64,000 bases of DNA. Source: an uncultured Verrucomicrobiota bacterium. Lineage in GTDB: Bacteria > Auribacterota > JABMQX01. The translations under genes were made by a program, and so were the position numbers. Under the pieces are notes generated by a model. That model did no database searches. It saw only the letters and a list, made by a program, of their open reading frames with translations, and was not told the DNA's origin. Within the stretch, counting starts at the first letter, position 1; each line of letters begins with the position of its first letter. The stretch covers positions 3,573 to 67,572 of the forward strand of contig CAZXGF010000014.1 in assembly GCA_964640185.1 (NCBI GenBank), written 5' to 3'. Below, in pieces: positions 11,752 to 38,749 of this stretch.

Positions 11752-11863
11752 CGAGCATGCCGGCGGAGTCAAGGGCGTCTGGTGGAATTGACCCGGGTCG
11801 CCAGCGAAATGCTCGGGGCCCCAGCGGGGCGAAAGGTGTTCGCAGGCGATTCTGATATTATAT

Positions 11864-11937: not shown

Positions 11938-11985
11938 TTTTTGCACTGTGATACGGTGCCGTGGCTCGGCAGTGGGCTATAGAGG

Positions 11986-18030: not shown

Positions 18031-20133
<2,103 letters not shown>

Positions 20134-20678: not shown

Positions 20679-23600
20679 ATGAATCGCAGGAAGGTTTTGA
20701 CGGTCGCTCTACTGGTTACCCTGGCGTCCATTTCATTTTCTTCCCTCTGTCAGGACAAGCTGCTCATTATCGCTCCCGATGAATTCATTGACGAACTTCA
20801 ACCTCTGCGAGGCTTCAAAGAATGTAGCGGGAGACCGACGAAGCTGGTGAGTTTAACCGAGGTTTACAACAACTCTCTCTTCAACGGAGTGGACGAGCCG
20901 GAGGAGATCAAAAAGTGCATCGCCCATTACGAGAAAACCGCAGGCGTGAAATCCGTCCTTCTGGTGGGCGATGTGGACAAGTTCCCCGTCAGGTGGCGAT
21001 GGTGGGGAAGGTGGTTGCCGGAAGACCCGTACTTCCAGGGCGCATGGTCAGTGGTAAGCAACGCCTACGAGCAGTCCAACGAGCAAGATAAAAAGCCGTT
21101 TTGCTCCTGGGTGGACGTGGGTCCGCACAGTGAATACACAATCGAGGTGGATTGCACACCGCTGTCCGGCCACGCCACGTTGAGGGAGTTCCGGGTCTTC
21201 TTCGCCAATGCAGACATAGCGGGGGCTCGTCTCCGCGTGGATTTTCTGCCTTCGCAGGCGCGACTGGTCCTCTGTGAGAAAAACCTCTATGCGGCTCACA
21301 GTTTTCCATTGAACCAGACCTATCACGTGAAAATCGAGGTGGGTTCGAACAACGTCAAGGTCTGGGTGGGAAACACGAAACTCCACGACACGACTTTGAG
21401 CGCTTACAGCGTCGAAGGGCGGGGACTCATCGGTCTTGGCACGTATATGTGCCGCTGCAGGTTCGACAACTTCAAAGTCACCTCAAAGACCAGTGCAGTC
21501 CTGTGCAATGATGATTTCGGGGACGGAAAGGCCGATGACTTTACTCCCGCCCCCACAATGGAGGAGCGGGGATGGGCCGCCAGCGACCTGTACTACGCGG
21601 ACCTCTACAAGGAGGGAACGAAGACGTTCGATGACTGGAATGGCAACAAGAGTGCCAACGGCCACCACGAGCAACTGTACGGCGAGATCGAATGGGATGC
21701 TTCCGTCGCAGAATACTGTGTGGGATGCACCCTAAACAACGACAAGATTGATTTCCTGCCCGATGTGGGGGTGGGAAGGATCCCGGCGTCAACGAAGGAG
21801 GAGGTTGCCCGTTACGTGGACAAGGCGATTCGGTACGAACTGGATACCCGCCCCAACGGTCCCTGGTTCAAGAAAGCCGTGAATTATCAGGGCACGGTCG
21901 GGAATGCGTATACGATTGAGCAGGTGGATGCCGCTTTGAAGGCCAAAGGGTTTTCGGTCGTCAACCGGTGGTGGATGGGCGACTTGGCGAACTACAGTCC
22001 CGGTGACCGGCCCGAGGAGGTCATCAAGGGCTTCAATGGCGGCGCCGGATTCATCAATTATATAGGGGGACATGGCAGCAGCGACTGCTGGAGCTGCATA
22101 GGATTCTGTGGCGGCGGCACCGCACCGACAGAGATAACGAACTCGGGCATGCTTCCGATCGTGTTTTCCCCCGCCTGCTTCACTGGAAGGTTCACCTATA
22201 CGCCTCCTGCGGAGCCATACAGGGACGTGTACGGGAATTCGCACCAGGGAACAGCCAAGTGCCAGCGATTTCCTGGACCCCCCAATGCCGCGCAATACGC
22301 GCCGCCCAGCCCTATCCAGAGCGGTTTCGACGCCGGTTGCCTGGCAGAAGACCTTCTGTTCAAGTTCGGCAACCCGGCTGGCTCCGCGGGGGCCGTCGCG
22401 TATCTTGGAGCACGTTCAGCGGGGAGATACGGTCATGAACTGGCCGAGTTGTTCTATAAGGGCTACTCCGATTCGGCAAACCCGAGAAATACGCTGGGGA
22501 AACTGTGGTCGTATATGATCCGGGAATATTACAAAAAGAGGAGCCTCAAGAAGTACGAAACCACAAGCTATTTGGTCAATCAGTCGGGGACATGGGAGCA
22601 CGGGCATTACTTCGATGAACCGCAGAAGATCATCGTGTTTGGCGACCCTTCCCTGGTTATAGGAGGAGTGTCCGTCCCACCGGACGTGTTCGACGACCAG
22701 TTGCCCACAGGCGAACCTCGCAACGATACGTTCGCCGACCGGGCTATCATTCCGCTGGTAATCGAAGCCCGGCCTGCAAGCAGAAAGCTGCCGAGGGTGT
22801 CGCTCACTTTCGACGTCAAAGACGACGCCGATTTCTTCGAGATCCAGCTCGAGGCCGAACCACCGGGCATGGCGGACTGCTTGGAGCCGGGAGATCCGGG
22901 GTACGAGGATCCAAACCTGGTCCAGGGCTACCTGACGATTTACGCCAATTCCTGCATCCCTTCCGGCCCCGTGAAGGTATCCAAGGATCTCCAGAAATTC
23001 GACCTGAAACTCTACAATGTCCGTGGGCAGGAATATTATGATCCAGAGAACGTCACAAAAACGGGGTACAGCCTCACCCTCCAGTGCCCCCATCAGGTTT
23101 TCCCCGACGGCAAGATTCGTTTCTCCGTCCAGGGTAAGAGCGCCCTCCGCAATTTCTACAAAGTGACGTTGCTGTACCGGCGAAGTGTCCATCCGATTGA
23201 CGTGCCAAGCTGGGTGTTTGATCCGTTGCCCTACCCGCCGCTATTTCGGTTTCCGTTGCCTTGGCCGCCCTGGAGGCAGGCGGTCCGATGGATCTATCCG
23301 TCGAACCCGGAGGTCATCAACAGCTTCTTCGAGAACCCGGAGCCGGGCCCGTTGCCGCGCGAGTACGGCATATTCGGATGGCATGAGGAGGGCGACCTGA
23401 ATCTGTACCTTTTCACGGAAGGGGGCGATCACCTGGAGATGACATTGTACGACCTTGACGGCCAGATAATCGCCACAACGGTTGCCGAAGGCGATAGCCC
23501 TCTCGGTGAGCGAGCACCAGGGGATTCTTACGGACACATCCATGTGCCGGACCTTCCTCCAGGAACATATGTTCTGGGCTTCGGCCCCGGGGATTTCGCA

Positions 23601-24173
23601 ACCGAGTACTACTGGACCACTTCTCTCGCTCCTGCAGTCAGGGAAATCTTCCTGAACCGGGAAAAGCATTTCGAGATGGTCTGGGACAGCCTTGCAGAAC
23701 AGATGTACACGATCTACTCGTGCCCCGACCTCCAGACAGGATGGTGGAACGAGGAAGCCTCGGTCTGGGCCGAAGGCCCACTCATGTCGTGGGCCGACGC
23801 GAACGTCAGAGGGATTCGTAAGTTTTACAGGGTCGGCGTCAGCATGGAACCCGGGATGTTCCTCGGCGCCTGGGTCAACGAGTCTTCCGAGACAAACAAC
23901 ATTACGCACCTTGAGATTCGAGAGGAAGAGGACGAGCTCTTCGTCCATGTGTGGGGGAAATGCCACCCGGAGGATTGCGATTGGGGGGAACAAGGAACCG
24001 CTGTCGCTGACGCTTACGACGGCACCCTCACTATCGTATGGGATCACGGCTTTGCGATTGAAGAGCAAGAGTTGTCCATGATCCGTGAGGGCTACCTCAA
24101 GCTGGTCGGCCACAAACAGTATTTCGATGAAAGACCAGAGGTGTTCTACACGGACTTCTTTGAGAGACCGTGA
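20679..24173 (+). CDS. Secreted C25 (gingipain-family) cysteine peptidase with an inserted lectin-fold domain and C-terminal modules
   Basis: Signal peptide; LLIIAPDEF, VLLVGDVDKFP, SDLYYADL, PDVGVGRIP, catalytic His in INYIGGHG and Cys in VFSPACFTG, FGDPSL; FYRV module near 23640-23845; terminal WGKCHPEDCDWG domain; start at ATG 20679 behind AAGGAG. Confidence 0.85.
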   Translation: MNRRKVLTVALLVTLASISFSSLCQDKLLIIAPDEFIDELQPLRGFKECSGRPTKLVSLTEVYNNSLFNGVDEPEEIKKCIAHYEKTAGVKSVLLVGDVDKFPVRWRWWGRWLPEDPYFQGAWSVVSNAYEQSNEQDKKPFCSWVDVGPHSEYTIEVDCTPLSGHATLREFRVFFANADIAGARLRVDFLPSQARLVLCEKNLYAAHSFPLNQTYHVKIEVGSNNVKVWVGNTKLHDTTLSAYSVEGRGLIGLGTYMCRCRFDNFKVTSKTSAVLCNDDFGDGKADDFTPAPTMEERGWAASDLYYADLYKEGTKTFDDWNGNKSANGHHEQLYGEIEWDASVAEYCVGCTLNNDKIDFLPDVGVGRIPASTKEEVARYVDKAIRYELDTRPNGPWFKKAVNYQGTVGNAYTIEQVDAALKAKGFSVVNRWWMGDLANYSPGDRPEEVIKGFNGGAGFINYIGGHGSSDCWSCIGFCGGGTAPTEITNSGMLPIVFSPACFTGRFTYTPPAEPYRDVYGNSHQGTAKCQRFPGPPNAAQYAPPSPIQSGFDAGCLAEDLLFKFGNPAGSAGAVAYLGARSAGRYGHELAELFYKGYSDSANPRNTLGKLWSYMIREYYKKRSLKKYETTSYLVNQSGTWEHGHYFDEPQKIIVFGDPSLVIGGVSVPPDVFDDQLPTGEPRNDTFADRAIIPLVIEARPASRKLPRVSLTFDVKDDADFFEIQLEAEPPGMADCLEPGDPGYEDPNLVQGYLTIYANSCIPSGPVKVSKDLQKFDLKLYNVRGQEYYDPENVTKTGYSLTLQCPHQVFPDGKIRFSVQGKSALRNFYKVTLLYRRSVHPIDVPSWVFDPLPYPPLFRFPLPWPPWRQAVRWIYPSNPEVINSFFENPEPGPLPREYGIFGWHEEGDLNLYLFTEGGDHLEMTLYDLDGQIIATTVAEGDSPLGERAPGDSYGHIHVPDLPPGTYVLGFGPGDFATEYYWTTSLAPAVREIFLNREKHFEMVWDSLAEQMYTIYSCPDLQTGWWNEEASVWAEGPLMSWADANVRGIRKFYRVGVSMEPGMFLGAWVNESSETNNITHLEIREEEDELFVHVWGKCHPEDCDWGEQGTAVADAYDGTLTIVWDHGFAIEEQELSMIREGYLKLVGHKQYFDERPEVFYTDFFERP

Positions 24174-24460
24174 ACGGTTTGCTTCATGGATATGAAATGC
24201 CGTACACCTGTCTCAGCATGGACGGAATGAGCACCGCCGCGTCGGACGTTCCGGCGCCCTGTCGCGCCGTCGAGATTGGCGGGGCGGGGTCGCCGAGCGC
24301 TGGATGGCGTCGCGGCACGTTCCGTGTAGCGTGGACGACTTCGGCTCCGAGGCCTGCTCGACACGGGGTCGAGACTCTCCCACTTCATTTCTGTGGGCAG
24401 TGAGCCGGAGAGCAAAGAAGGAATGAGAAGAACCGATTGACTCTTGAGAGGACGGCAGCT

Positions 24461-26290
24461 ATGAGAAGAACATGGACAGCAATTGTATGTCTCCTGATTG
24501 TATCCTTGAGTGGCCTGGCTACGGCCTGGGAAATGTGGTATGTGGACATTTCTGTGCCGACGCCCGGTGATGGAACCTCCTGGGCGAAGGCGTTCAATCG
24601 CATCCAGCACGGAATTGATGCGGCGAAAAACGGCGACGTTGTCATGGCGGCACAGGGGGAATACCATGAGAACATCCGCTTCAAGGGGAAAAACATCAGT
24701 CTCACGGGGATGGATCGGCCCAACACCGTCATTTCCGGTGATTCGGTTGGTCCCGCAGTAACGTTTCTGGGGATGGAGGACAACACATGCTCGCTTTCCG
24801 AATTCACCATTCGGTCGGGACGCGCCCCTAACGGCGGAGGAATCCTGGGCAACGGCTGCCGGGCGAGGATACAGAATAACGACATCACTTCAAACGTTGC
24901 GGAAGAGTGCGGCGGGGGTCTGTACGGCTGCCACGGTCTAATCCAGGGCAACACAATCATGAGCAATCAGGCGAAATTGAATGGCGGCGGCTTGTACCAT
25001 TGTGACGGGATGATCTATAACAACACCATCCTCTGGAACATAGCGGAAGGTTACAGAGACAAATACGTCGTGCCTCCTCACGGTCGTGGAGGCGGGCTGT
25101 GCGCCTGCCACGGCACCATTCAAGGCAATACAATTAGAGTCAATGAAGCCCTTTTCGGGGGCGGGCTCTGCGAATGCTGCGCGACCATTCAATACAATAC
25201 CATCGTGTCGAATCAGGCGGTTATGGTTACCATTCCGAGTCATGGGGCTTTTGGAGGTGGAGGTGGGGGACTCTGCTCGTGCGGGGCCATTATTCGGTAC
25301 AACACGATTCAGGCCAACACCGGGGAGTTCAACGGAGGTGGTCTGGCTGATTGTAACGGTATCATTCAGGAGAACACAATCAGCGGTAATGTAGCCGACA
25401 TCCAGGGCGGCGGCCTGGCCGCTTGCGATGGTCTGATTCAAGATAATATCATTGAGGGGAACTTCGCGGACTTCTGCGGAGGTTTGATTGCCTGTATGGG
25501 CAAAATCCTGAACAATTTCATCTTCGATAACTACTCCGATACCGGTGCCGGGGGCCTCGGTTTTTGCGATGCCTTGATCCGCGGCAACCTGATCCTGGGA
25601 AACACGGCGAGCGGGGGCCAGGGCGGTGGTCTGTTCCGCTGTCACGAGCACATCTCGTGCAACACTATTGTGGGAAACTGGGCGGATGAGGGCGGTGGAA
25701 TCTACTGGTGCGAGGGCACAGTCCGCAACAACATCGTTTGGGGCAACGACGCTAACGTCGGTCGTCAGATTCACTACCAAACGAATCCGACGTATTGCTG
25801 CATCGAGGGCTGGACCGCAGGGGGTGAAGGGAACATCATCAGCGGCCCGGTATTCGTTGACCCCGATGGCCCGGATAGTGATCCCAGCACGTTCGAAGAC
25901 AACGACTACAGGCTCGGGTCGCGGTCACCGTGCATAGACAAGGGATACAATGAACCGTGGATGATGTGGGCTGCAAGGGACTTGGATGGCAACAATCGCG
26001 TTTTCAAAGGAAGCTTCTCCTCCACTGTGGACATGGGCGCTTACGAGTTCGGCTCTCGCGTGTTCCAGATCGTTGATGTGAAAAGAACTACTCGCGGGGT
26101 CATAGAATTGACGTGGGATAGCAATTCGGGCGAGAGCTACGCTGTCTGGTCTCGCTTCTCTCTCCCAAGCGGCGGGGTCGTTGGTTTCTGGATAAAGGAG
26201 GCAACAGTTTCGTCCCAAGGTTCGAGCACACAATGGTCCGATACCTCCGCCAGCGGCGAAAGCAAGTTCTACCGGGTTGAGTTGCAGTAG
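24461..26290 (+). CDS. Secreted right-handed beta-helix protein with 12 Cys-containing GGGL repeats, choice-of-anchor-Q-like region and C-terminal FYRV module
   Basis: Signal peptide; WYVD...GDGTSWAKAFNRIQHGID; repeats GGGL-x-x-C-x-x-x-I-x-x-N-x-I; P.FVD...DYRL...SPCIDKG...VDMGAYEF. Confidence 0.85.
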   Translation: MRRTWTAIVCLLIVSLSGLATAWEMWYVDISVPTPGDGTSWAKAFNRIQHGIDAAKNGDVVMAAQGEYHENIRFKGKNISLTGMDRPNTVISGDSVGPAVTFLGMEDNTCSLSEFTIRSGRAPNGGGILGNGCRARIQNNDITSNVAEECGGGLYGCHGLIQGNTIMSNQAKLNGGGLYHCDGMIYNNTILWNIAEGYRDKYVVPPHGRGGGLCACHGTIQGNTIRVNEALFGGGLCECCATIQYNTIVSNQAVMVTIPSHGAFGGGGGGLCSCGAIIRYNTIQANTGEFNGGGLADCNGIIQENTISGNVADIQGGGLAACDGLIQDNIIEGNFADFCGGLIACMGKILNNFIFDNYSDTGAGGLGFCDALIRGNLILGNTASGGQGGGLFRCHEHISCNTIVGNWADEGGGIYWCEGTVRNNIVWGNDANVGRQIHYQTNPTYCCIEGWTAGGEGNIISGPVFVDPDGPDSDPSTFEDNDYRLGSRSPCIDKGYNEPWMMWAARDLDGNNRVFKGSFSSTVDMGAYEFGSRVFQIVDVKRTTRGVIELTWDSNSGESYAVWSRFSLPSGGVVGFWIKEATVSSQGSSTQWSDTSASGESKFYRVELQ

Positions 26291-26490
26291 CTTGGTGAGG
26301 CGTCTGCTTACGGCGGGCAAGTACGCTCCTGCCAACGCTGATCTGAACAAGGGAACCGTATGGGCGGTTGACCAACTTCGGTCCAACAAATGAGTCCAGA
26401 CCGAGTGCTTTTGGATTCCCTCTTCCCTGCGCGACCGAAGCGGCAAAGGAGGGCATAAGGGCTTCAGTAACAACGAAGGAGGGCTGTCTT

Positions 26491-28074
26491 ATGTTGAATC
26501 GCAATCTGCTAATGAATGCTGTCTTGGTCAGCTTTCTGGCGGCCGCGGCCCCGGCGACTGCTTGGGGGGACTCGAGCACCCTCGTGAGGCCGGGCCAATC
26601 GAGGTTTTACCGCGTGCGCTCCAATGGAGAGCCGCCCGACAGCGCGAACATACTCTCCATCGAAATTGCCGGTGACATGATTTCCTTGACATGGGAACCC
26701 TTCGGCACAAGCGTCTATCGCGTGCAATACACTGACGACCTTACTTCCGAAAATTGGTCCGACGTGCCCGGCACTACTTGGCCAATAGCGGAGGAACAGT
26801 GGAGCGGCGACGATATATCACCCCCGATCTACTACGTCTCGACTGTCGGAAATGACAGCAATCCCGGCACGATAGATCAGCCCTGGCGCACCATTCAGCA
26901 CGCCGCGGAAATGGTGGCCGCCGGCGATACGGTCTACATCAGGGGGGGAACGTACAACGAACAAGTGCTGATGGAAACCAGCGGAAGCGCTGCCGAAGGG
27001 TACATTACGTTCGCTGCTTATCCCGGGGAAACGCCGGTGATCGACGGAACCGGCGAGATCGGGAACAACGGTGTACTGATCCCTGTCGGCTACATCAGGC
27101 TGCTTGGCCTGGAGATTCAGAACTGGCCGGACTGCGGCCTTTGGATGGAAGGCGCCTACCACTTCGAGATCGCCGACTGCAAAGTCCACGACGTCTCGTG
27201 CGGGATTGGAGTCGCATACGGCGCCCATGATTTCGTGCTGAACCGGGTGGAGATGTACAGGTTCACTCTGTACGGGTTCGATGCCTCCCCTTCTGGAGGA
27301 GCAGACTGTTACAACGGTACGTTCAACGATTGCGTCGCCCACACGTGCAGGGACCCCGAGCAGAATGTGGACGGGTTTGCTCTCGGTCACGGCACCCAGC
27401 ACGGTTTTGTGTTCAACCGCTGCCAGACCTATGGAGTGTTTGACGGATTCGACATGAGTTCGCGGAACACCACACTGAATCGCTGTTCGGCCCACGACTG
27501 TATGAATGGCGGATACAAGATCTGGCAGAAAGATATAACGCTGGTCAACTGTCTCAGCTACCACAACGGGGAGACCAACGTGGAGTTGGATTGGTCGGGG
27601 GAGGCGAAAACGACAACTCTGAGGAACTGCACGTTTGTGGATTGCGGGACATTCAATGTCTGGGTTGAGAACGCCGCTGACTGCGTGCACATGTACAACT
27701 GCATCCTTGTGGGCGGCGACAACATTGCACTGGCAATAGAGGCTCTCGCCAGCTATCAAGGCGACTACAACGTGTTCCACAACGACAATGCCGAGCGTGC
27801 TATCGTGGTCTGGGGGGAGGATGCAGAGTTCTCTTTACAGATGATCCAGGATGGAGATTGGTCCACGCACAGCGGTCAAGACCTACATTCACTTGTCTGC
27901 TCCGATCCAAACTCTCAGCTTTTCGAGGACTTGGGCAACTGGGACTTTCACTTGAGAGAGGGGAGCATTGCCATAGATAAAGGCACCGCAGACAACGCGC
28001 CGCCCAACGGCCATGACGGCGTGAGCAGACCCCAGGGCGCGGGCTTTGACATAGGCGCTTACGAGAGGAGGTAA
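26491..28074 (+). CDS. Secreted right-handed beta-helix protein (DUF1565/PL9-like, choice-of-anchor-Q-like end) with an N-terminal FYRV-type module
   Basis: Signal peptide; YYVSTVGNDSNPGTIDQPWRTIQHAA...AGDTVYIRGGTY; DFHLREGSIAIDKG...FDIGAYE; start at ATG 26491 behind AAGGAGG. Confidence 0.85.
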   Translation: MLNRNLLMNAVLVSFLAAAAPATAWGDSSTLVRPGQSRFYRVRSNGEPPDSANILSIEIAGDMISLTWEPFGTSVYRVQYTDDLTSENWSDVPGTTWPIAEEQWSGDDISPPIYYVSTVGNDSNPGTIDQPWRTIQHAAEMVAAGDTVYIRGGTYNEQVLMETSGSAAEGYITFAAYPGETPVIDGTGEIGNNGVLIPVGYIRLLGLEIQNWPDCGLWMEGAYHFEIADCKVHDVSCGIGVAYGAHDFVLNRVEMYRFTLYGFDASPSGGADCYNGTFNDCVAHTCRDPEQNVDGFALGHGTQHGFVFNRCQTYGVFDGFDMSSRNTTLNRCSAHDCMNGGYKIWQKDITLVNCLSYHNGETNVELDWSGEAKTTTLRNCTFVDCGTFNVWVENAADCVHMYNCILVGGDNIALAIEALASYQGDYNVFHNDNAERAIVVWGEDAEFSLQMIQDGDWSTHSGQDLHSLVCSDPNSQLFEDLGNWDFHLREGSIAIDKGTADNAPPNGHDGVSRPQGAGFDIGAYERR

Positions 28075-28535
28075 GGCGCACAGCAAGGGCGGCGCGCCCC
28101 GGAAGCCCGGCTCTTCGAGCAGCAAAGAGTGTCCCGATTCTCCGGCGCGATTCTGCGCGAACCAGTTTCAGCTACGCGTCGTTTCGGCCCCACCCTTAGA
28201 ATCGCCTGACATTCATTTGAACGGCAAACGGACACCAGGAGGCGAAACGAAAGAATGGAAAACGGGAACTGCGAAAAGAAAAACCACTGGCCCCGAACTC
28301 TCGGTGTCGGTTTGTCGGGCGCGAGCAGAGATGTTCTCCGCGACAGTCATAAGTTATTGGCGGCTGCTTTTGCGCTGTGGGCCATCTGCTGAAGTGGCTT
28401 TGGCATCCTGCTTCCCATCGCTGCGATAATCATTGACGTTTTCATCATCTCGGTTCTCCGCCGCAAGAACAATTACGTTTCCGCCGTTTCCCCGGTTTGT
28501 CAAAAGGCGGAGCTTTGAGCTGCTAAGCATGAGTT

Positions 28536-29113
28536 GTAACTATTCAGGTAGCATAGCCGTTGAGAATGGGGATTTCAAGGCAGGCAGAAAAAAAGTGTAG
28601 CAGCCGTTCTCCCATCTCGGTAAGTTATTCCACGGAGGAAATCAACGGGGCTCTGCGCCCCCTCCTTCCCCTGCGGGTTTCTGTGGTGGCGCAGCGTTGC
28701 GAGGATCACGCTCCATTCCGGTGTCTGTTGTCGCGTCATCACTATCTGGGACTGCGAAACACCGTGGGGGAAAACCTGAGCTATCTGGTTCGGGACAATA
28801 CCGGGCGGCCGCTGTCGTGCCGGTTGTTTGGCAGCGCCGCTTGGAAGACGGCGCCGCGGGATGTCTTTATCGGCTGGGACGCTCCAACCCGGGGAAGAAA
28901 CCTTTCGAAGCAAAACCGGCGGTAGTGATTTCTGCCGCATCCGGAGTTACATTTCAACCGTCCGAAAACATGCCCTCAATGTCATTGACGCCATCCACAG
29001 CGTTTTCCCGGGAACTCCTTTCCTCCCGTCACTCGATAGCTGATAACGCCTTTCCAAGAAGCTTTGCTTGCCTCCATGCACGCGAAGTCAGCGGAAAGTA
29101 TCTGAATAATTAC
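28536..29113 (+). mobile_element. Internally deleted IS66-family element carrying a DUF4338 (DruA-like) fragment
   Basis: Terminal IRs GTAACTATTCAGGTA (28536-28550) and TATCTGAATAATTAC (29099-29113), 13/15 match; fragment HHYLGLRNTVGENLSYLV...FGSAAWK...RD.FIGW; IS66 transposase tail FCRIRSYISTVRKH..NVIDAI..VF.G.PF.P; no target duplication visible. Confidence 0.75.
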
Positions 29114-29298
29114 GCCGGGGCTTCGATCAGACCGGAGATGCGAAAGCACATAGGGACTTGGTTTCGCGAGAAGTTTCGCGAAGACTTGTTGGAAACGGAC
29201 TTTGAGGATATACTGGAGGAAGGGTGGCATGGGACCACCTTTGCCCGAACTGGGCCGACAGGCCTGCTTGTGATTTTTCCGTAAAGGAGACTACCACC

Positions 29299-30762
29299 GT
29301 GAACAAGACCATGAGTCGTCGCAGCTTCATTTCGAAAGCCGCTTTGGGCGCCACGGGGCTACTGATTCTCAAGGACAGCCGATCGGCCCGCGGCGCGCCT
29401 GCCAATGGAAGAATCAACGTCGCTCTCATCGGAGTGGGGGGCCGTGGCAGGTGGTTTGTTGACACGATACCGAGGATGGAAAACGTGGTTGCCATCTGCG
29501 ACGTCAATGACCGCAAGATTGCCGAGGCCCATAAGCGGTGGGCGAATCTCGCGGACCGTTTTGCGGTTTCATCGCACCAATGGGAGCGGTCGGCAGCCCC
29601 GGCCTTCCGCCGGCTGGCCGACGAAAAAGTCCGGGCGTTTCACGACTTCCGCAAGATGCTCGACGAGATGGGAAAGCGGATTGATGCGGTCATCATCGCC
29701 ACTCCCGAGCACACCCACGCTGTCGCATCGGCGGCTGCCATCCGGGCAGGCAAGCACGTTTTCTGCGAGAAGCCGTTAACGCGAATCGTGCATGAGTCCC
29801 GCGCCCTCGCGGACCTGGCCAGGAAACACAAGGTCGCGACTTCCATGGGCAACCAGGGAACTGCGAGCGGGCAGTTCCGTCGCGCCCTCGAGCTCATCCG
29901 GGATGGCACAATCGGAGAGATTAAAGAGGTACATGTTTGGAACACCAGCGGTGGCGCCGATCGGAAGAAGCCGCCCCAGGGAAGCCGACCTGTTCCCGAT
30001 TACTTGAACTGGGACCTGTGGCTCGGCCCGGCAGCGTTCCGGCCTTACCATCCTGAGTGGATGATCCGGAACCTCTGGCGAGATTTCGGCACCTCCCAAC
30101 TGGGCAACTGGGCCAGTCACAGCGCGAACCTCGCCTTCATGGCCCTGAAGGTGCATGAGCTGTGGCAGGCTGACCCCTCGAGGCAACCGAGGCAGCTCAT
30201 CTGCTTCGAGGCCAACTGCTCGGTGATCAACCATCGCTCGTTTCCCCGCTGGGAAGTTGTGAGCTGGGAGGTCCCTGCTCGCGCTGAGTTCCCGCCAATC
30301 ACGTTCACCTGGCACAACGGCAGGGCTGCCAGCAGTCGAGACCTTCTCGAAAATCTCATTGGCGACGGTCTGGATTGGGGTGACAAGAAAGAGAAAAAGT
30401 ACCTGGACCATGCAGGCGCCGTGATTGTTGGCACGAAGGGAAGGATTCACGCCACCGCCCACAACGCCACGTTCCGCCTCTTGCCCGAGGCGGACTTCAA
30501 GGATGTCGCGAGAGACCGCCCAAAGACGGTAGATGCCTCCCGCGGCCACGAGATGGACTGGTTCATCGCCTGCCGCGGCGGCAAGCCCGCCTGGGCGAGA
30601 TTCGAATATGCTGGTCCATTGACGGAGTTCCTCATGCTTGGCAACGTCGCCACTCAGGTCGAGGGCCGTCTCGAATTTGACCCTGTGGAGTGCAAAATCG
30701 TCAACAATGCACGCGCGGATAACCTCCTGCGCAGCAAGTATCGGCAAGGATGGACCTTGTGA
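29299..30762 (+). CDS. Gfo/Idh/MocA-family oxidoreductase, Tat-exported
   Basis: SRRSFISK Tat motif; INVALIGVGGRG, DAVIIATPEHTH, GKHVFCEKPL, MGNQG and WDLWLGPA motifs; GTG start behind AAGGAG. Confidence 0.93.
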   Translation: MNKTMSRRSFISKAALGATGLLILKDSRSARGAPANGRINVALIGVGGRGRWFVDTIPRMENVVAICDVNDRKIAEAHKRWANLADRFAVSSHQWERSAAPAFRRLADEKVRAFHDFRKMLDEMGKRIDAVIIATPEHTHAVASAAAIRAGKHVFCEKPLTRIVHESRALADLARKHKVATSMGNQGTASGQFRRALELIRDGTIGEIKEVHVWNTSGGADRKKPPQGSRPVPDYLNWDLWLGPAAFRPYHPEWMIRNLWRDFGTSQLGNWASHSANLAFMALKVHELWQADPSRQPRQLICFEANCSVINHRSFPRWEVVSWEVPARAEFPPITFTWHNGRAASSRDLLENLIGDGLDWGDKKEKKYLDHAGAVIVGTKGRIHATAHNATFRLLPEADFKDVARDRPKTVDASRGHEMDWFIACRGGKPAWARFEYAGPLTEFLMLGNVATQVEGRLEFDPVECKIVNNARADNLLRSKYRQGWTL

Positions 30763-30769
30763 AAAGGGT

Positions 30770-32617
30770 ATGAGCATGAAAGTAAGATTCTTTGCAGTCA
30801 CCGCCCTTATGATGTTGGTTCTCGCCGCATCCCTTCTCGCGGCTGAACCTGCGAAATCGCCCGAAGGCATTTCCAGGCATAGAGAAGACCAAATCCGCGC
30901 TGCGGCTACGGCGAAGCCGCGCGTCGTACCCAAAAGAAATCGCCGAGTGCTCATCTGGAGCACGCCCTCCCACCTCATAGATAAGGACCCCCACAGGGGC
31001 TACTGTGTTCCCTATGGTCTGTGTGCTATGCGAATCCTCGGGGAGAAGACCGGCGCCTTCGAGCCCGTTGTGAGCGGCGACATCGCGCTTTTCCTGCCCG
31101 AGAATATCCGGCAATTCGACGCCATCGTGATGAACAACAGTTGCAGGGCGTGGATTACTCCGAGTGACGCCGCGATGGAGACCCTGAAGGCGTACGGCAA
31201 AACCAAACAGGCCGTGGAGAAGATACTCCGCGAAAGCCTCCTCGACTACGTTGCAAACGGTGGCGGGATCGTCGCGTATCACTTCGCCATCGGCGCAAAC
31301 GCCCACTGGCCGGAATTCCACCAGCTTCTTGGAGCCGCTTTCACAGGCCATCCCTGGAACGAAGAGGTCGCCGTGATGGTCGAGGAGCCGAGTCACCCGC
31401 TCGTGGCCGCCTTTGGCGGTAAGGACTTCCGCCTCGCCGACGAGATATACCAGTTCGGCCCTCCCTACGATCGCAGGAAGCTCCGCGTGTTGCTGTCGCT
31501 TGATACCGAGCGCACAAACATGGGCGTCAAGTGGATTCGGCGGGAGGATAACGACTTCGCTCTGGCCTGGGTGAAATCGTTTGGCAAGGGACGCATCTTC
31601 TACTCGGCCTTCGGGCATCGCACGGAGATCTGGTGGAATCCGACAATACTCCGGTTCTACCTGGACGCCATCCAGTTCGCTGTGGGAGACCTGGAGGCGC
31701 CCACCGCGCCGCGGGACACAGCTCCGGTCCACCGTGCCCCAGGGCCGACCCCGCCGGATGTGCGCGAGGCCAAGATGAACGCCCGCCGGGTTCCCATACC
31801 CACCGAGGAGCAGATTGATCGGATCAAGGAGGCAGCACCCGAAACGGCGCCGACGAAGCCCGCCAAGCCTCGCCGAGTGCTGGTCTGGGGACATGCTTGG
31901 ACACACACTCCGAACGCCTTCGCGGAGAAAGCCATCGAGATTCTCGGCAAGAAGACCGGAGCTTTCCAGGCCGTCGTCAGCGACGACCCGAGACTCTTGC
32001 TGGGAGATCGCCTGCCGCAGTTCGACGCCCTCGTGCTTAACAACATCCACGAGCGCGAGCCATTCCTTCCGGAGGAATTCAACAAGCTCGACCCCGAGAG
32101 GCAGGCTGCAGCCAGGAAGTTCGATCAGGCCGTCAAGCAGAGTATCATCGAGTATGTCCGTGGCGGCAAAGGATTGGTCGGCATCCACGCAGCGACCGCC
32201 GCCTTCCAAAACTGGCCCGAGTACGGCGACCTGATAGGCGGCTATTACGGCGGCCATATCCATCAGGAGGTGACCATCAAACTCGATGATCCTGCCCACC
32301 CTATCAACGCTTGTTTCGAAGGAAAGCCCTTCCAGATAATGGACGAGGTGTACATCTTTCGCGCACCTTACTCCCGCAAGAACCTCCGTGTCATCGCCAG
32401 CCTTGATTTGAGCCGGATGGCGGACCCGGACAAGCGCCCTGATAGGGATTACGCCGTCTCATGGGTCAAGGCTTTTGGCAAAGGCCGTGTCTTCTACACG
32501 ACGCTGGGGCACGAACCGAAGACGTACTGGAACCCGCTCTTTCTGCGGCACCTCCTCGCCGGCATCCAGTTTGTCATTGGGGACATGGAGGGAGAAACAG
32601 CCCCCATCACAAAGTGA
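30770..32617 (+). CDS. Secreted protein with two tandem ThuA-like (class I glutamine amidotransferase-like) domains
   Basis: Two copies of QFDA(I/L)V(M/L)NN...GG(G/K)G..H...F..DE(I/V)Y...LRV(L/I).SLD...(W)VK.FGKGR(I/V)FY...GH. Confidence 0.88.
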   Translation: MSMKVRFFAVTALMMLVLAASLLAAEPAKSPEGISRHREDQIRAAATAKPRVVPKRNRRVLIWSTPSHLIDKDPHRGYCVPYGLCAMRILGEKTGAFEPVVSGDIALFLPENIRQFDAIVMNNSCRAWITPSDAAMETLKAYGKTKQAVEKILRESLLDYVANGGGIVAYHFAIGANAHWPEFHQLLGAAFTGHPWNEEVAVMVEEPSHPLVAAFGGKDFRLADEIYQFGPPYDRRKLRVLLSLDTERTNMGVKWIRREDNDFALAWVKSFGKGRIFYSAFGHRTEIWWNPTILRFYLDAIQFAVGDLEAPTAPRDTAPVHRAPGPTPPDVREAKMNARRVPIPTEEQIDRIKEAAPETAPTKPAKPRRVLVWGHAWTHTPNAFAEKAIEILGKKTGAFQAVVSDDPRLLLGDRLPQFDALVLNNIHEREPFLPEEFNKLDPERQAAARKFDQAVKQSIIEYVRGGKGLVGIHAATAAFQNWPEYGDLIGGYYGGHIHQEVTIKLDDPAHPINACFEGKPFQIMDEVYIFRAPYSRKNLRVIASLDLSRMADPDKRPDRDYAVSWVKAFGKGRVFYTTLGHEPKTYWNPLFLRHLLAGIQFVIGDMEGETAPITK

Positions 32618-33210
32618 GTTCTGACAACTGTCCAGAGTCAATGGGGCAAAAAACCCGATGAATTGCCAGCAACTGTCCTGGCAAAAGGGGCTGCTCAGGC
32701 AGAAAAGAAGACCGCCTGGTCAAAGAGATCATAATCCCCCGAGATATCCTCGCAGCGACAGATCTCAGAGACCCATAGGCAAGGCAAGCAACTTGGTGAA
32801 CGCGAACGAGAAACAGGCACAATGACGTATCCATATTGGAAATAACCTGTGTACTGCGAACGAGATGGCAAAAACACCATTATTCGTGCGATGGAGCCAA
32901 AAATAGGAAGAAAAATCAAGGCTGAGAAGATGAATTCGGAAAATAGGCGGGGATGAGGAGCGAAAACCCCCAGCCTGTGAAGCGCGGAATGCGACCCGAT
33001 TCCGGCCTTTTCCCGTCCGGTTCATGTTCCCCTTCGAATGAACCCACCGTTCTTTTTCTTGTTCCGATAAGTTGTGTCCTTTCCTTCAGGTGAAACCGAA
33101 CCGTCCAGGCCAGCGCGCAGGAGAATCAGTTTCTCGATGGCACAATCACCGCCTGCGTGAGGAGCGAAAAAGAAGCCCGCTGACATGCGAACTAAATACA
33201 GCCCCAACGC

Positions 33211-33324
33211 GATACCTCACTTACGGGGGGCTGAGCGTGGAACCGCAGAGCCCGCAGAGCGCGCACGGGGACGTGGCATGGGCATCTTGCCCATGAGTGT
33301 TCACGGGCGAGACGCCCGTGGCAC
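33211..33324 (+). repeat. Dispersed repeat Y, copy 2, extended by the REP palindrome CACGGGCGAGACGCCCGTG
   Basis: Aligns to 20188-20275. Confidence 0.8.
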
Positions 33325-33958
33325 GAGGGCGCCTCGCCACATCCGAGCGCCACGCTATCATTTTGCCTTGACGGCACACAGAGGCGAAAGCTGGCCATAC
33401 GCGAAAACGGAACGTCCCCACAAGGTCCTCAGCCGCCCGTGGGGCTGTCCTGTCCCTCCATTGGAGATAGGCAAATATTCTCTCCGCGCTCTCTGCGCTT
33501 TCTGCCGTGAGTTCATCTCCCCCTGAGACTGAGGAATCGCGCCGCAACCGAGAAAAGGGTTGACAACCGACTATACCGCGCGGTTATTCTTGGATTAAAA
33601 TAACAGAGTTATTCGATGAACCCTGTGTCCATCATACGATTTGCCTTTTCACAGCGTCCAGGCTTTTTGCACGGCGGAATCCTTTGGGGAGACAATGGTG
33701 TGGGTAAGCTACTGTCTTGTGGTGTGCATGCGGTGGACATTGACGTGACGTCGCCGTTACTCGTTTCACCTGAAAACCGCCGTATTGTCCTCTCCATCCC
33801 CGGCGCAGTAAAAGTTCTGTCAGCCGAAAAAGGCGTCTCAAGATGAGCAATGGTAAACGATACCCGATGGTGTCCAGAATCGCCAAGAGCGTCTTTATCA
33901 TTAACTTTAGTGGCTATCGTGGCAATAATTATGTAACAAAAAATGGGAGGGTCTCAAA

Positions 33959-36900
33959 ATGAGAAAAGGAATCTTTAATTGCATGTTTTGGGCTGTATTT
34001 CTGAGCGTGGGATTGGCTGTGGGTGTCGCAAATGCGGACATCGAGGAAGGTCTGGTCGGGCACTGGACGTTTGACGAGGGCGAGGGCACAACCGCCGAAG
34101 ACAGCTCCGGCAACAACAACCATGGCACCCTCATGAATGGGCCGCTGTGGGTGGCCGGCCAGCTAGGTGGCGCTCTGGAGTTTGATGGCACCGATGACTT
34201 CGTGGAGGTGCCCCATGCCGCGAGCCTGACGGTGGACACCGAAGTCACTGTAGCGGCATGGATAAATGCTTCGAGGCATAACAGCGCTGGTGGTGACTGG
34301 CAAGGGATTCTTGCAAAGTCCAATGATCCCAGATCGTATAGCTTTTACACTTATGTGGACGGGACACTGCATTTCAGCACAACCAGCGCTGGCGCTTACG
34401 TTGGTTCGAACAGCACCGGAACAGTGCCGCTCAATGAATGGGTACACGTTGCTGCAATGGTGGTGGATGGCGACCACAGGTATTATATCAATGGACAACC
34501 TGCTGGTGAGCTTGTAGCAGATATCAGCCTGCCAGGCGCCTCAGACACAGCCACTGTTCTTATCGCCATGAGTAATGAGACCGGCAACAATTTCCTCGGC
34601 ATGATTGACGACGTCCGCATCTACAACCGGGCCTTGAGCGAGGAGGACATCCTCCAGTTGTACAACTGGGTCGGCGGGGCCAACGCCGGAGACGACCAGT
34701 GGGTCGAGGCTGGGGACACGGTAAGCCTGGACGGCGCGGCCCCCCCCGACGCCACCAGCTTTGCCTGGCAACAGGTCATCATTGCCGACGAGCCGGTCGT
34801 CACAATCACCGATTCCGACAAGCCTACCTGTAGCTTTGACTGCCCGGTCCGCGACATCGGTTACACTCTGACTTTCCGCCTGACAGTGGAATCCCCGGAG
34901 ACGGGCACAACTACCGACGAATGTCTGGTCATGGCCCGTGCTCCCAACCCGCCCAAGATCGCCCCCAGTAACCTGCGAACGGTACGGACGGACAGGGGCT
35001 TCTGCCTGTACTGGGACAACGTTTTCGACGCGGAGGCTTACCAGATAGAGATAGAATATTACCCCACGGTCTGGGTCCCTGTCGCCCCGAACGTTACGGC
35101 TCTCGAATACCTGGTCAAGGATCAGGACCCCGGTAACGTGGTTCCCATCAGAGTGTCGGGGAGGAACAATCATGGAATTGGCGCCGTCTCCGACCCGGTT
35201 TCCATGACTATTATGCGGAATCTGTCGCTGCCGGCGCCGACTGGAGGCACGCCGCCTTCCGCGACTTTTGACTACGATGGCAATGCCGTCGGGGCGTTGA
35301 ATGACGGCAACGTCGAGAGCAGCACCGACAGCTACGGCACTGCAGCCGAGACCGAGGATTTCTGGGGATATACCTGGGATACCCCGTTGTGGCTCGACGA
35401 GATAGCGTATTACACCGGCCAGTTTTACTCCGATGGCGGATGGTTTACGGACCTAACCGTTGAGTACACGGAGGATGGGACCACATGGGTGGAGGCTCCG
35501 AATGTAAAGCTCATCCCGGACTACGACTTCGTTGATTCTTCCGGCGGCCGAGAAGACTTCACCAGATATACAATCACATTCGGGACCGTCAGAGGCACAG
35601 GGATGCGAATCTTCGGGACGCCTGGCGGCATGAACACCTTCACGTCAATAGCGGAGCTGGAGATTTATGGCAACCAGGCGCGAGGTGATCTCGTCGTTCA
35701 GGGACTGGACGCAGAAGTTCCGGAGAACGGCACTGCCACTCTCGACGGAAGCTATACCATGTCGCTCATAGGAGATATTACCAGCTACTCGTGGGCCCAG
35801 ACGAGCGGGCCGACCGTGGCCATCGCCGACTCGACCGCTGCCGTTACGACCTTCACCGCTCCGGCTGTGGAGGAAGATACCGTTCTGGTTTTCTCGTTGA
35901 CGGCGGGCGACGGCACTAACGAGGGAACGGACGACGATGTCCGCATCACGGTGAAGAACGTCACCACCACGGCTGTCGCGGGCGTTGACCAGACGGTGGA
36001 GGAGGGAACCGTTGTGAGTCTCGACGGCACGGGCTCCCTGACTGCGACCGGCAACCTGACCTATTCCTGGAGTCAAACCGCGGGGCCGGACGTGACTCTG
36101 AGCGACGCCGCTGCCCCAACATGCTCCTTCATCGCTCCTGAGATATGGCCGTACGTGCAGCGGTTGACCTTCCGGCTGGATGTGGACGATGGCGAGGGCG
36201 GCACGGGCAGCGACGAGGTCAACGTCAATGTCACGAACTCCGTGTTTGAGACGAAGCCTCTGCCGACGTACTACTTTCAGGACCTCCTGCACCTGGGCAA
36301 TACGCCGGAGGACCGTTTTCTCGGCCCGCTGGACCTGAGCCTGGACACCAACGACTACCTCGCGGATTGGGGTGGGCAGGCGAACGTTAATCCTGTGGAG
36401 GGCGAGGCGTACGACTTCACCGACACAGGCATAAGCACGACGGTCAATCCGATGGTATGGACGCCCGTCCACAGGGACGACGGCTGGTTCATGTGGGAAC
36501 TGCGAGCCGGCCAGGCTCTTGACAACTTCGGCCAGATTTACCACATCTACATCTTCTCGCCGGATGAACGGGAGGCGCGGGTGCATGCCCGTTACGACGA
36601 TGAGGTCCGCATCTGGAACAATGGCGGGCTGGCTCATACCGATAACTCCTGGGACCTCGGCGTTGAGCGTTCCTCGGAGTTCACCCTCGATGAGGGAGTC
36701 AACTCCATGACGCTGAGGTTCGAGGAAGGGGAAGGAGGGAACAGCATTGCGGCAAGGATCACCGACGCCAACGACGTTCCATTCACCGACCTTTCGTACG
36801 CCCTGTCTGTCCGGAGTCCTCTCCCGGCTGCGTACGGACTGAGGGCTCTGCCCGTGTCGTATGCTTCCCCGGGGACCGTAAACGTTCAAGTTTCGGTGAG

Positions 36901-38749
36901 GGCAGACCCCGACCACCTCCCGGGAACCATAGCCGTCAGGGAAATCCTTCCGGAAGGCGTGACGGTTGCTGATGATGGCGGCGGCACACCGGGCGCAGGA
37001 ACGCTGACCTGGGTTTTTGGGAGCGTCTCTTCTGCGAAGGTCTCCTATTCAGTGTCGGTTCCGGCGGGCACTACCGCTGGGCTGGAGTTCAGGGGAGATG
37101 TCAACGGAGAGAACACTCTCGGCGACACCGAGACGTATGCCGTTCCCTCCGCGCCTCAGTATGTAAGCCTGGACATGATGCTTGGGGCACAGTTAAGCTG
37201 GAGTCCCCCGCCGGAAGAAGGAGCAGATGCCTATCACGTCTATCGCAGCGTGGACGGCGGCGACTGGGAGGAGGTAGCGTTTACAAGGCAGACCTCTTAC
37301 TCGGAAGGCGTCGTCGAGGGGAGCACGTACAGCTACAAGATCACAGCCGTCAACAAGAACGGCGTGGAAGGGCCCTTCAGCGACGCCACGGAACCCGCCA
37401 CGGTAACCCTGCCGATAACAAGGGAGGCGGAGAACTACAACTATGGCGGAGGGCAATACCCCGGATCGGAAAACTGTCCCGCCGCCAATGAGGCGCCGGA
37501 CTCCGACACAGTCGGCACACCGGCGGATTACGACTTCTATTTCAACAACACCTGGCCCGTGGGCGACCCGGCGCGCGCCTACCGACCGGAGGATGATGTG
37601 TTCACGGAGCTTCGGGTGGATACCCCGAACGTTGGAGGGATGACCGTGGGCGACTGGCTGCGGTACACCTTTGATGTTCCTGCGCCGGGAGCAGGGGAGC
37701 CCACGGACGGCTGGGCCATGATAGGAATCAAGGCAGCCTCGCCGAGCGGCGGGACGGCTGAGCTGTACTGGGATGAAGGCCTCCTCGGGACTCTCAGCTT
37801 CAACACGGGCGATTGGGGAGTGTTCCGCTGGTACGCCCTCGAGGACGCCTTCCGGACAACTCCGGGAGAGCATACGCTAAGGGTGAAGCTGGCGTCCGGA
37901 GGCATGAACATTGACATCATCGGCGTCGGCTTCAACCAGAAAATAAGTCGCGAGGCCATCTTCGAGGACGACTTCGAGGATTATACCAACCTTTACGATT
38001 GGAACGATCTGGAGACTGTCGGCAATTGGGACGTGACCAATGGCTCAGGCGAGCCGGATGTCGGATGGCGGTTGTGGAACACCGCGGGCAATTACCTGGG
38101 CGATGAGACGGAGGACCGACATCCCGCCATCGCTGGCATGACCGGCAACTACGTCATCACGGATAGCGACCTCGTCGGCACGGCGGACCTCAACGAGGAA
38201 CTCGTCACCCCGGACATAGACTGCACCGACTACATAAGACTGAAGCTCGACTTCAGCAAGAACTTCAGGGTCTATCCTGACGACGCGGATCACACCCAGA
38301 TTGCGGAGGTGGACATCCGGGAGGTCGGCGGCGGCTGGGTCAACCTGCTGTCCTACAACGTGAACTCAATTGACCCCAACCTCGATCCGGCAATTGACAG
38401 CAGCCCGGAGAAGCTGGACCTGTCGGCTTATGACGGAGAGACATTCCAGCTCAGGTGGCATTTCTACGAAGCCACGTGGGATTGGTGGTGGGCCATTGAC
38501 AACGTCATGGTCTCCGGCGAGCCGAAGCCGACGGAGGTGACTAAAAGGGTGGTTCTGTCGGTCGAGATTGCGGCAGGCAACCTGAATCTGACATGGAATG
38601 CCTTCGGCGCCACGGGAGAGTACTACGTCGAGCACACCACTGACTTGGTAAGCTGGACGGAAGTGCCGGGGGGGCCGATCAGCGGCACCAGCGCGGCCGT
38701 GTCCGTCACCGGAGAGGACGCAGGCTTCTACCGCATCCGCGGCGACTGA
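33959..38749 (+). CDS. 1596-aa secreted multidomain surface protein: LamG, PKD-like repeats, FN3, CBM-like/F5-8, PA14-like, CBM6/35-like, cleaved-adhesin/choice-of-anchor-J-like and C-terminal FYR module
   Basis: Signal peptide; GLVGHWTFDEG...IDDVRIYNRAL; three AG.D-V.EG..V.LDG..S...YSW.Q..GP-type repeats; REAENYNYG; IFEDDFEDY...WWAIDNV; no recognisable catalytic domain. Confidence 0.85.
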   Translation: MRKGIFNCMFWAVFLSVGLAVGVANADIEEGLVGHWTFDEGEGTTAEDSSGNNNHGTLMNGPLWVAGQLGGALEFDGTDDFVEVPHAASLTVDTEVTVAAWINASRHNSAGGDWQGILAKSNDPRSYSFYTYVDGTLHFSTTSAGAYVGSNSTGTVPLNEWVHVAAMVVDGDHRYYINGQPAGELVADISLPGASDTATVLIAMSNETGNNFLGMIDDVRIYNRALSEEDILQLYNWVGGANAGDDQWVEAGDTVSLDGAAPPDATSFAWQQVIIADEPVVTITDSDKPTCSFDCPVRDIGYTLTFRLTVESPETGTTTDECLVMARAPNPPKIAPSNLRTVRTDRGFCLYWDNVFDAEAYQIEIEYYPTVWVPVAPNVTALEYLVKDQDPGNVVPIRVSGRNNHGIGAVSDPVSMTIMRNLSLPAPTGGTPPSATFDYDGNAVGALNDGNVESSTDSYGTAAETEDFWGYTWDTPLWLDEIAYYTGQFYSDGGWFTDLTVEYTEDGTTWVEAPNVKLIPDYDFVDSSGGREDFTRYTITFGTVRGTGMRIFGTPGGMNTFTSIAELEIYGNQARGDLVVQGLDAEVPENGTATLDGSYTMSLIGDITSYSWAQTSGPTVAIADSTAAVTTFTAPAVEEDTVLVFSLTAGDGTNEGTDDDVRITVKNVTTTAVAGVDQTVEEGTVVSLDGTGSLTATGNLTYSWSQTAGPDVTLSDAAAPTCSFIAPEIWPYVQRLTFRLDVDDGEGGTGSDEVNVNVTNSVFETKPLPTYYFQDLLHLGNTPEDRFLGPLDLSLDTNDYLADWGGQANVNPVEGEAYDFTDTGISTTVNPMVWTPVHRDDGWFMWELRAGQALDNFGQIYHIYIFSPDEREARVHARYDDEVRIWNNGGLAHTDNSWDLGVERSSEFTLDEGVNSMTLRFEEGEGGNSIAARITDANDVPFTDLSYALSVRSPLPAAYGLRALPVSYASPGTVNVQVSVRADPDHLPGTIAVREILPEGVTVADDGGGTPGAGTLTWVFGSVSSAKVSYSVSVPAGTTAGLEFRGDVNGENTLGDTETYAVPSAPQYVSLDMMLGAQLSWSPPPEEGADAYHVYRSVDGGDWEEVAFTRQTSYSEGVVEGSTYSYKITAVNKNGVEGPFSDATEPATVTLPITREAENYNYGGGQYPGSENCPAANEAPDSDTVGTPADYDFYFNNTWPVGDPARAYRPEDDVFTELRVDTPNVGGMTVGDWLRYTFDVPAPGAGEPTDGWAMIGIKAASPSGGTAELYWDEGLLGTLSFNTGDWGVFRWYALEDAFRTTPGEHTLRVKLASGGMNIDIIGVGFNQKISREAIFEDDFEDYTNLYDWNDLETVGNWDVTNGSGEPDVGWRLWNTAGNYLGDETEDRHPAIAGMTGNYVITDSDLVGTADLNEELVTPDIDCTDYIRLKLDFSKNFRVYPDDADHTQIAEVDIREVGGGWVNLLSYNVNSIDPNLDPAIDSSPEKLDLSAYDGETFQLRWHFYEATWDWWWAIDNVMVSGEPKPTEVTKRVVLSVEIAAGNLNLTWNAFGATGEYYVEHTTDLVSWTEVPGGPISGTSAAVSVTGEDAGFYRIRGD

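Follow-up and report, generated by a model that had tools for sequence, protein, structure and literature searches.

A divergent FN3-type module on exported proteins of an uncultured Verrucomicrobiota bacterium: a candidate portable C-terminal attachment domain

SLH and cell-wall-binding repeats are portable, terminal and non-catalytic domains, which are found singly or in tandem on diverse exported passengers. The type IX secretion system (T9SS) C-terminal domain (CTD), described by the Por_Secre_tail models (PF18962/TIGR04183), is a small beta-sandwich that occupies the extreme C-terminus in many different Sec-exported surface proteins, and the FN3 linkers of bacterial carbohydrate-active enzymes are internal domains of 90-100 aa. 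In the verrucomicrobium Akkermansia muciniphila, a T9SS-like CTD together with ‘a comparable system’ has been proposed from an AlphaFold 3 (AF3) model for the surface-bound protein Amuc0953 (PMC13524802, 2026). The present analysis concerns a 64-kb stretch of DNA (64,000 nucleotides, referred to as the window; assembly GCA_964640185.1, contig CAZXGF010000014.1, positions 3,573 to 67,572) from an uncultured Verrucomicrobiota bacterium, in which four exported proteins, one of them a C25-family peptidase, carry a related module with the motif FYR[VI]. A reading made from the letters of the window without database searches (the sequence-only reading) had taken this module as part of a candidate sorting system, in which the C25 protein would process its neighbours in the manner of PorU.

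Overall, the module appears to be a portable C-terminal binding or attachment domain which spread by domain shuffling and of which the C25 protein merely acquired a copy; this explanation is preferred here with middling confidence. It corresponds to the caveat of the sequence-only reading, that the module might be a portable binding or anchoring domain, rather than to its main proposal. The C-terminal position and truncated FN3 architecture of the module make it a concrete candidate for the surface retention of enzymes and adhesins outside the sortase, exosortase and T9SS systems.

The module, its family and its predicted fold

The four module proteins are the C25 peptidase (20679-24173; 1164 aa), beta-helix protein 1 (24461-26290; 609 aa), the pectate-lyase-like beta-helix protein 2 (26491-28074; 527 aa) and a LamG/PKD/FN3 protein of 1596 aa (33959-38749; the 1596-aa protein). 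All are encoded on the + strand, as are the other genes of interest, and each starts with a Sec-type signal peptide. Copy 1, of the KFYRV type, is internal in the C25 protein (23622-23840, 110 aa before the stop). Copy 2 in beta-helix protein 1 (26057-26287, KFYRVELQ-stop) and copy 4 in the 1596-aa protein (38537-38746, GFYRIRGD-stop) are C-terminal and canonical, with beta-helix protein 1 ending three residues past FYRV, while copy 3 in beta-helix protein 2 (26644-26826) is N-terminal, just after the signal peptide. To avoid circularity, an independent profile was built from 102 database copies, none of which reaches 45% identity with a window copy. It matches exactly the four window open reading frames (ORFs), with E-values of 2.8e-17, 7e-22, 1.3e-11 and 3e-6 for copies 1 to 4, respectively, and the next best match has E >1. 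Since a profile from unrelated copies picks out these four alone in the window, the segments are judged by profile comparison to be one family, well beyond chance. The sequence-only reading, which had placed a related module at these positions in four signal-peptide proteins, was thus borne out.

The copies form two pairs: that of the C25 protein is 36% identical to that of beta-helix protein 1 over 58 aa (E 1e-12), and that of beta-helix protein 2 is 50% identical to that of the 1596-aa protein over 42 aa (E 3e-12), with weak similarity across the pairs. In the following, P-numbers denote representative database proteins and L-numbers metagenome loci. The C25 copy is closest (38-49% identity) to C-terminal copies of beta-helix proteins, and the beta-helix 2 copy is 66% identical to C-terminal copies in P0002 and P0018. 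Therefore, both non-terminal copies look secondarily acquired.

FYR[VIL] occurs four times in the six-frame ORFs of at least 50 aa of the window, once in each module protein. The view that FYR[VI] ends the module held for the C25 protein, beta-helix protein 1 and the 1596-aa protein but failed for beta-helix protein 2, where SRFYRV lies upstream of the copy. Here, copy 3 covers positions 6-62 of the 78 profile positions, stops before the last strand of the fold described below (strand F) and runs into the beta-helix; the ‘IYYVS’ that follows is the N-terminal beta-helix cap, at which the DUF1565/Pel9A match begins. The isolated SRFYRV (26599-26616, + strand), nine residues upstream of copy 3, is kept in the orthologues P0017 and P0152, and its region gives a weak partial match to profile positions 53-75. 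AlphaFold 2 (AF2) models it as a strand with a pLDDT of about 59, in a region of mean pLDDT 58. It may be either the remnant of a lost upstream copy, comparable to the two-copy tail of P0002, or a circularly permuted strand F.

An exhaustive HMMER search with the profile of the four sequences against 1.84 billion representatives (clusters at 50% identity) found 1008 proteins at E<=1e-3, 66 of them at E<=1e-10. No Pfam or NCBIfam model covers the module, even at E<=10, when isolated segments are searched, nor is it covered in proteins built almost wholly of module copies; on the module itself, only sub-threshold matches to Tissue_fac and fn3_SORL1 and none to Pfam fn3 (PF00041) were obtained. 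In a word-indexed protein search, module alignments gave either no match or 11 short fragments without names; no plasmid matched a two-copy module by tblastn, and a literature search for the motif, for choice-of-anchor domains and for sorting domains of the PVC group returned nothing on the module. By these comparisons, the module is a large family absent from Pfam and NCBIfam. More than 1000 protein clusters thus carry a domain missed by the curated libraries, and in many large surface proteins of uncultured polysaccharide degraders the final 75 residues go unannotated; the family profile would serve as a simple marker for such proteins.

Placement at the protein level was counted in the best 150 of the 1008 matches. 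The last copy lies five residues or fewer from the C-terminus in 122 of these 150 representatives, and 73 of the 150 contain two or more copies, up to 11. In addition, a degenerate DNA pattern encoding W-T-D...K-F-Y-R-[IV]-E, in which a stop codon is not demanded, was run over JGI metagenome contigs; the 73 loci obtained (508 kb) represent one subtype, KFYR[IV]E, and stem from a small number of metagenome projects. In 88 of the 94 module ORFs of these loci the module ends at most six residues from a verified stop, and of the 24 flank ORFs that carry the module without fitting the search pattern, 19 have it at the C-terminus. The end point is sharply fixed, as the protein ends 3-4 residues past FYR[VIL] in 78/84 locus ORFs and 92/112 representatives, with Pro as the last residue in 44 of the 112. 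The profile search and position count proposed by the sequence-only reading therefore revealed a strong C-terminal bias, and its picture of a module shared by exported surface-type passengers and mostly C-terminal across the family was confirmed by both sets.

The passengers are diverse: 49 Pfam families were found among 63 proteins, led by fn3, Big_9, Beta_helix, Cadherin_5, MBG_2, Cadherin_4 and LamG_3, with PKD and CBM domains too, and a Sec signal peptide is present in every carrier for which this can be judged. At L084 (440-19378), three adjacent genes encode giant cadherin/Big_9/MBG proteins of 1474, 1289 and 3125 aa, each ending in the module, and adjoin polysaccharide-synthesis genes (UDP-glucose dehydrogenase, Wzy and epimerase). 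At another locus, a protein ends in eight tandem module copies. In the KFYRIE subtype, to which the C25 and beta-helix 1 copies belong, 72 of the 94 carrier ORFs come from one paralogous beta-helix family resembling beta-helix protein 1. Therefore, the positional bias within this subtype is partly inherited, but across the whole family it is not.

Across 0.5 Mb of flanking DNA, no partner gene was seen to recur, and the beta-helix passenger is the one real family that does. Repetitive beta-helix genes (window 24385-27780, on the - strand and in other frames; loci L011-L083) give alternative-frame ORFs as long as about 600 aa. What looked like recurrent neighbour families in the 73 loci was rejected as alternative-frame shadows of the beta-helix genes, and ORF ‘families’ of 121, 26 and 12 members were likewise artefacts of the repeats. 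Most matches of the KFYR[IV]E subtype (L011-L083) come from the JGI projects Ga03155xx, Ga0315289, Ga0315274, Ga0315312, Ga0209979 and Ga0114930, which include metagenomes holding the window's own contig; this clustering suggests a habitat- or clade-restricted expansion.

Within the window, beta-helix protein 1 has a choice-of-anchor Q domain directly before the module (NF041518, 28.8 bits against an NCBIfam cut-off of 25), and beta-helix protein 2 has one at its very end (41.4 bits against the same cut-off) besides matches to Pfam Beta_helix, Pel9A-like and DUF1565 models. Going by the NCBIfam naming, the position directly after choice-of-anchor Q is the usual place of sorting or anchor tags. 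The 1596-aa protein combines LamG_3, three K319L-like PKD domains, FN3 and a CBM6-like region with a ‘WWAIDNV’ domain, which the module follows, and P0002, P0003 and P0047 are relatives with its tail architecture. The ‘WWAIDNV’ domain, with the conserved pattern ...LRWxFxxAxxDxWWAIDNVxV, always precedes the D/I-type module (window 38400-38530, and the tails of P0002, P0003 and P0047); it has no Pfam or NCBIfam match.

The structure prediction that the sequence-only reading had proposed points to an FN3-like fold. The AF2 model of the copy in the 1596-aa protein, made from a 45-sequence alignment, is a small all-beta domain (pLDDT 88.9, pTM 0.75) with strands at 7-13, 16-21, 29-35, 53-57 and 65-70. 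The PDB entries that Foldseek ranks highest for it are almost all FN3 domains, such as Tencon, titin Fn3, the C-terminal domain of iduronidase and cytokine receptors (TM 0.45-0.69, probability up to 1.0, E 0.02 or higher), and no T9SS CTD is found among the first 50. By sequence, the family profile matches the ‘Fn3-like protein’ 3mpc (3mpc_A) of C. thermocellum over profile positions 9-74 (E 6.2e-5) and the Fn3 of CtXyl5A (5g56; E 2e-3). FYRV aligns with YYYVV, which is strand F in 3mpc, and about 28 target residues remain beyond it. The tandem repeats have a period of 72-82 residues, which is too short for a seventh strand.

It appears from model and alignment that the module is a divergent FN3-superfamily domain of about 75 residues, confidently predicted as a six-strand sandwich A-B-C-C'-E-F in which FYR[VI] is strand F and strand G is absent. 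The predicted beta-sandwich and the profile relation to a solved FN3 domain speak for membership in FN3, whereas the module reaches neither the Pfam fn3 gathering score nor the seven strands including G. The usual FN3 core residues are represented by the invariant W, Y, L and Y of the module; the F and R of FYR and the second conserved W are specific to the module family and lie outside the canonical core.

The C25 peptidase and the role of the module

The 1164-aa protein matches Pfam Peptidase_C25 (PF01364) with 156.4 bits against a cut-off of 23 (E 1.7e-45). When it is compared with gingipain R (RgpB, 1cvr; E 2.7e-15), GGHGSS aligns with TGHGSE and PACFTGRF with VACVNGDF, so that the catalytic His and Cys are conserved. 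By these alignments, it is a genuine C25 member and probably an active secreted protease. It is composed of the peptidase core, unassigned middle domains, the module and a tail domain of 110 aa (23841-24170, + strand) with a CHPEDCDWG motif, which has the same place in four close orthologues and has no credible Pfam match, only a chance-level one (E 0.16). Against the PorU and PorU2 models (NF033707 and NF052324) the protein scores 36.3 bits for a cut-off of 420 and 45.2 for 450, and neither PF18962 nor PF13860 matches it, the protein ending in the 110-aa domain instead.

Among 92 C25 homologues, the module is present only in the four closest (71-100% identity), always 110 residues from the end. 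About 25 are orthologues of about 750 aa (42-51% identity), which cover the N-terminal 55-63% and lack the module, and relatives that are named but more distant belong to archaea and Deltaproteobacteria. These shorter orthologues (P0157-P0173; L087, L088) share a different C-terminal end, ...GQLR(M/A)RNGGxIKFY-stop. At L087, the C25 gene stands two genes downstream of a gene for a small FlgD_ig protein, with a 479-aa gene between. A C25 profile from 78 homologues, which recovered the window gene and a 28%-identical Phycisphaerales relative (E 1e-84) as controls, found no C25 gene in the 76 module loci (0.58 Mb; the 73 pattern loci plus the loci of P0002, P0014 and P0001). Conversely, no module was found in the loci of two of the approximately 750-aa orthologues and of the Phycisphaerales relative from a metagenome-assembled genome (0/3). 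However, a 79% identical C25 orthologue from another sample (L086) has four further module genes around it. Overall, the association of C25 with the module is confined to the window's own narrow lineage, in which module genes are frequent.

The identification of the C25 protein as PorU was rejected, since its scores are about tenfold below the cut-offs, and the proposed C25/PorU-like processing system was not supported, given these scores, the lack of C25 at the module loci and the lack of the module in most orthologues. A tempting annotation of this protease as a PorU-like sortase is thereby removed. The sequence-only reading had also stated what would speak against its proposal, namely an Ig/FN3-like family that neither shows a positional bias nor co-occurs with C25 genes: the FN3-like fold and the absence of C25 from the module loci were found, but the position of the module is strongly biased.

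The role of the module can be potentially described as follows. It would be a portable, non-catalytic domain whose most likely task is to keep its passenger attached to the cell envelope, a polymer or a partner, by way of its free C-terminus and of the face exposed where the G strand is missing. Beta-helix protein 1 and the 1596-aa protein would keep the ancestral C-terminal copy, whereas the copies in the C25 protein and beta-helix protein 2 may have resulted from domain shuffling in a lineage rich in module genes, the former copy being nested among beta-helix-type tails and the latter deriving from the tail type of P0002/P0003. The C25 gene would then encode a separate, probably active, secreted protease which acquired a module copy, and the module would not be a signal clipped by this neighbouring peptidase. 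An anchoring function is suggested because tandem terminal repeats on varied exported passengers typify anchoring modules, and a cleaved signal is disfavoured because it would not be arrayed or kept internally. Several points weigh against this explanation. The attachment function is read from the architecture of the proteins, and the strict C-terminal position is equally expected of a secretion or sorting tag. With E-values of 0.02 or higher, the Foldseek matches are weak, and strand G is taken to be lost on the strength of the model and one profile alignment. Within the lineage of the window, module genes are repeatedly found around the C25 gene (four more at L086), and the absence of C25 from the module neighbourhoods may be compatible with a protease acting in trans; the cargo genes of T9SS are likewise scattered rather than adjacent to porU.

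If the C25 protein were a PorU-like sortase, it would recognise the module of its neighbours, clip it and attach the cargo to the surface. PorU itself is a C25 protein bearing a CTD, the catalytic residues are intact here, and the C25 gene adjoins module genes both in the window and at L086. Nevertheless, this is very unlikely in view of the low PorU/PorU2 scores, the orthologues without the module (only 4 of 92 homologues share the architecture), the loci in which one is found without the other, closest named relatives from archaea and Deltaproteobacteria, groups without T9SS, and a module that is FN3-like rather than CTD-like and occurs in tandem arrays. The module could also be a secretion or surface-attachment tag comparable to the T9SS CTD but read by other envelope machinery of this non-Bacteroidota lineage, with no role for C25. 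Its extreme C-terminal placement across unrelated passengers, the Sec signal peptides of its carriers and the CTD proposed for Amuc0953 (PMC13524802) agree with such a tag; a pure export signal would seldom be found in arrays of as many as 11 copies, or in internal and N-terminal copies that look functional, and neither a recurrent partner gene in the flanks nor a profile match to 9s8x_A (E<=10) or to a true T9SS CTD was obtained. A tag of this kind is unlikely, although the strict end point and the place after choice-of-anchor Q in beta-helix protein 1 keep a C25-independent sorting tag alive. It is similarly an outside chance that the G-less FN3 tail is a new C-terminal sorting or attachment tag in a lineage lacking T9SS, which some envelope machinery would read, possibly via a donated strand, as a counterpart of the CTD with a different fold.

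A further scheme would make the module a passive FN3-type spacer or cap without a specific partner, whose C-terminal bias would have arisen, independently of function, by 3'-end recombination among paralogous surface-protein genes. In accordance with this, among solved structures the module comes closest to FN3 linkers from clostridial glycoside hydrolases (3mpc; 5g56, CtXyl5A), conserved residues are those of the FN3 core, and the single paralogous beta-helix family accounts for most copies of the KFYRIE subtype. At the extreme end of a protein, however, there is nothing to space, and the bias recurs across the 49 passenger families with an end point fixed 3-4 residues past FYR and with the family-specific F, R and second W outside the core; a passive spacer is therefore quite unlikely. 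Lastly, the G-less sandwich might be completed in trans by donor-strand complementation, by which carriers would dock or polymerise, and the C25 protease might prime this process as the gingipains prime the type V pili of Bacteroidota. The missing strand G and the isolated SRFYRV, which beta-helix protein 2 and its orthologues keep beside a copy without its own strand F and which AF2 models as a strand, are in line with this possibility; the AF2 model of that region is poor, however, no donor motif was identified, and C25 is not associated with the module outside the window's lineage, so that donor-strand assembly appears extremely unlikely. The preferred explanation thus remains the portable attachment domain.

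Gene layout of the window

Window gene coordinates were taken from JGI gene calls on identical contigs, and the JGI and Logan contig calls agree with the ORF list. The module genes lie between ligA (18040-20133) and prfB, which is downstream of the gene of the 1596-aa protein. This stretch had been called an accessory block, a description that was not upheld: the GC content is even throughout the window (0.54-0.61), and the run of module genes is interrupted by a GFO/IDH/MocA oxidoreductase gene (29224-30762, + strand) and a ThuA gene (30638-32617, + strand). Housekeeping genes flank this run of genes for exported proteins, which is not a compositionally distinct island. The ThuA gene encodes one exported protein of 659 aa with two tandem ThuA domains, and the oxidoreductase gene which it adjoins has a twin-arginine signal.

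The remaining genes of the window encode a sulfatase, GH95, arabinofuranosidase, LamG proteins and sugar ABC transport; no secretion-system or T9SS genes are present in the 64 kb. In its gene content, the window resembles the PVC group. Two gaps of 1.1-1.3 kb (28075-29223 and 32618-33958) contain no convincing gene and no Rfam match, and in the first of them JGI calls just one 45-aa ORF. A promoter and terminator scan of 20-39.5 kb gave nothing clearly above chance, and Rfam and tRNA scans of the window found only tRNA-Pro (11863-11938). The prfB gene (RF2; 39808-40906, + strand) has the classic programmed +1 frameshift, an ordinary and well-known feature, with the ATG at 39808, the CTT TGA C site at 39874-39880, AGGAG just upstream of it and the downstream frame at 39878-40906.

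Comparison with known systems

The FN3 linkers of bacterial carbohydrate-active enzymes (3mpc and 5g56) are the sole significant sequence-profile matches of the module in the PDB. Both share the W, Y, L, Y core, the sandwich predicted for the module and secreted passengers of polysaccharide-active or adhesin type. In contrast to the linkers, the module has only about 75 aa and would stop after strand F, has its own FYR[VI] and second conserved W, is not recognised by Pfam fn3 and is almost always the last domain of the protein.

With the T9SS CTD, the module shares the predicted small beta-sandwich, the extreme C-terminus and the many Sec-exported surface passengers, and with T9SS and PorU a C25-family protein nearby that carries its own copy. 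The extreme C-terminus, the place of a type A CTD, is occupied by two of the four window copies. However, the structural neighbours of the module are FN3 domains, and it occurs in tandem arrays. No Por_Secre_tail model of Pfam or NCBIfam matches the module even at E<=10, and identity with the T9SS CTD was rejected when hhalign of the module profile with a real one (the PF18962 tail of P0222) gave a probability of 0.12%. Amuc0953 resembles the module proteins of this study in being a Sec-exported, beta-helix-containing, surface-bound enzyme of the PVC group with a final small beta-domain. The module profiles do not match 9s8x_A at E<=10 (1263 aa; probably the Amuc0953 chain, in which construct the CTD may not be included), and the Amuc0953 CTD was set aside as a member of the module family, as it probably belongs to a different one.

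Although they are unrelated to the module in fold and sequence, the SLH and cell-wall-binding repeats provide the working analogy for its proposed function.

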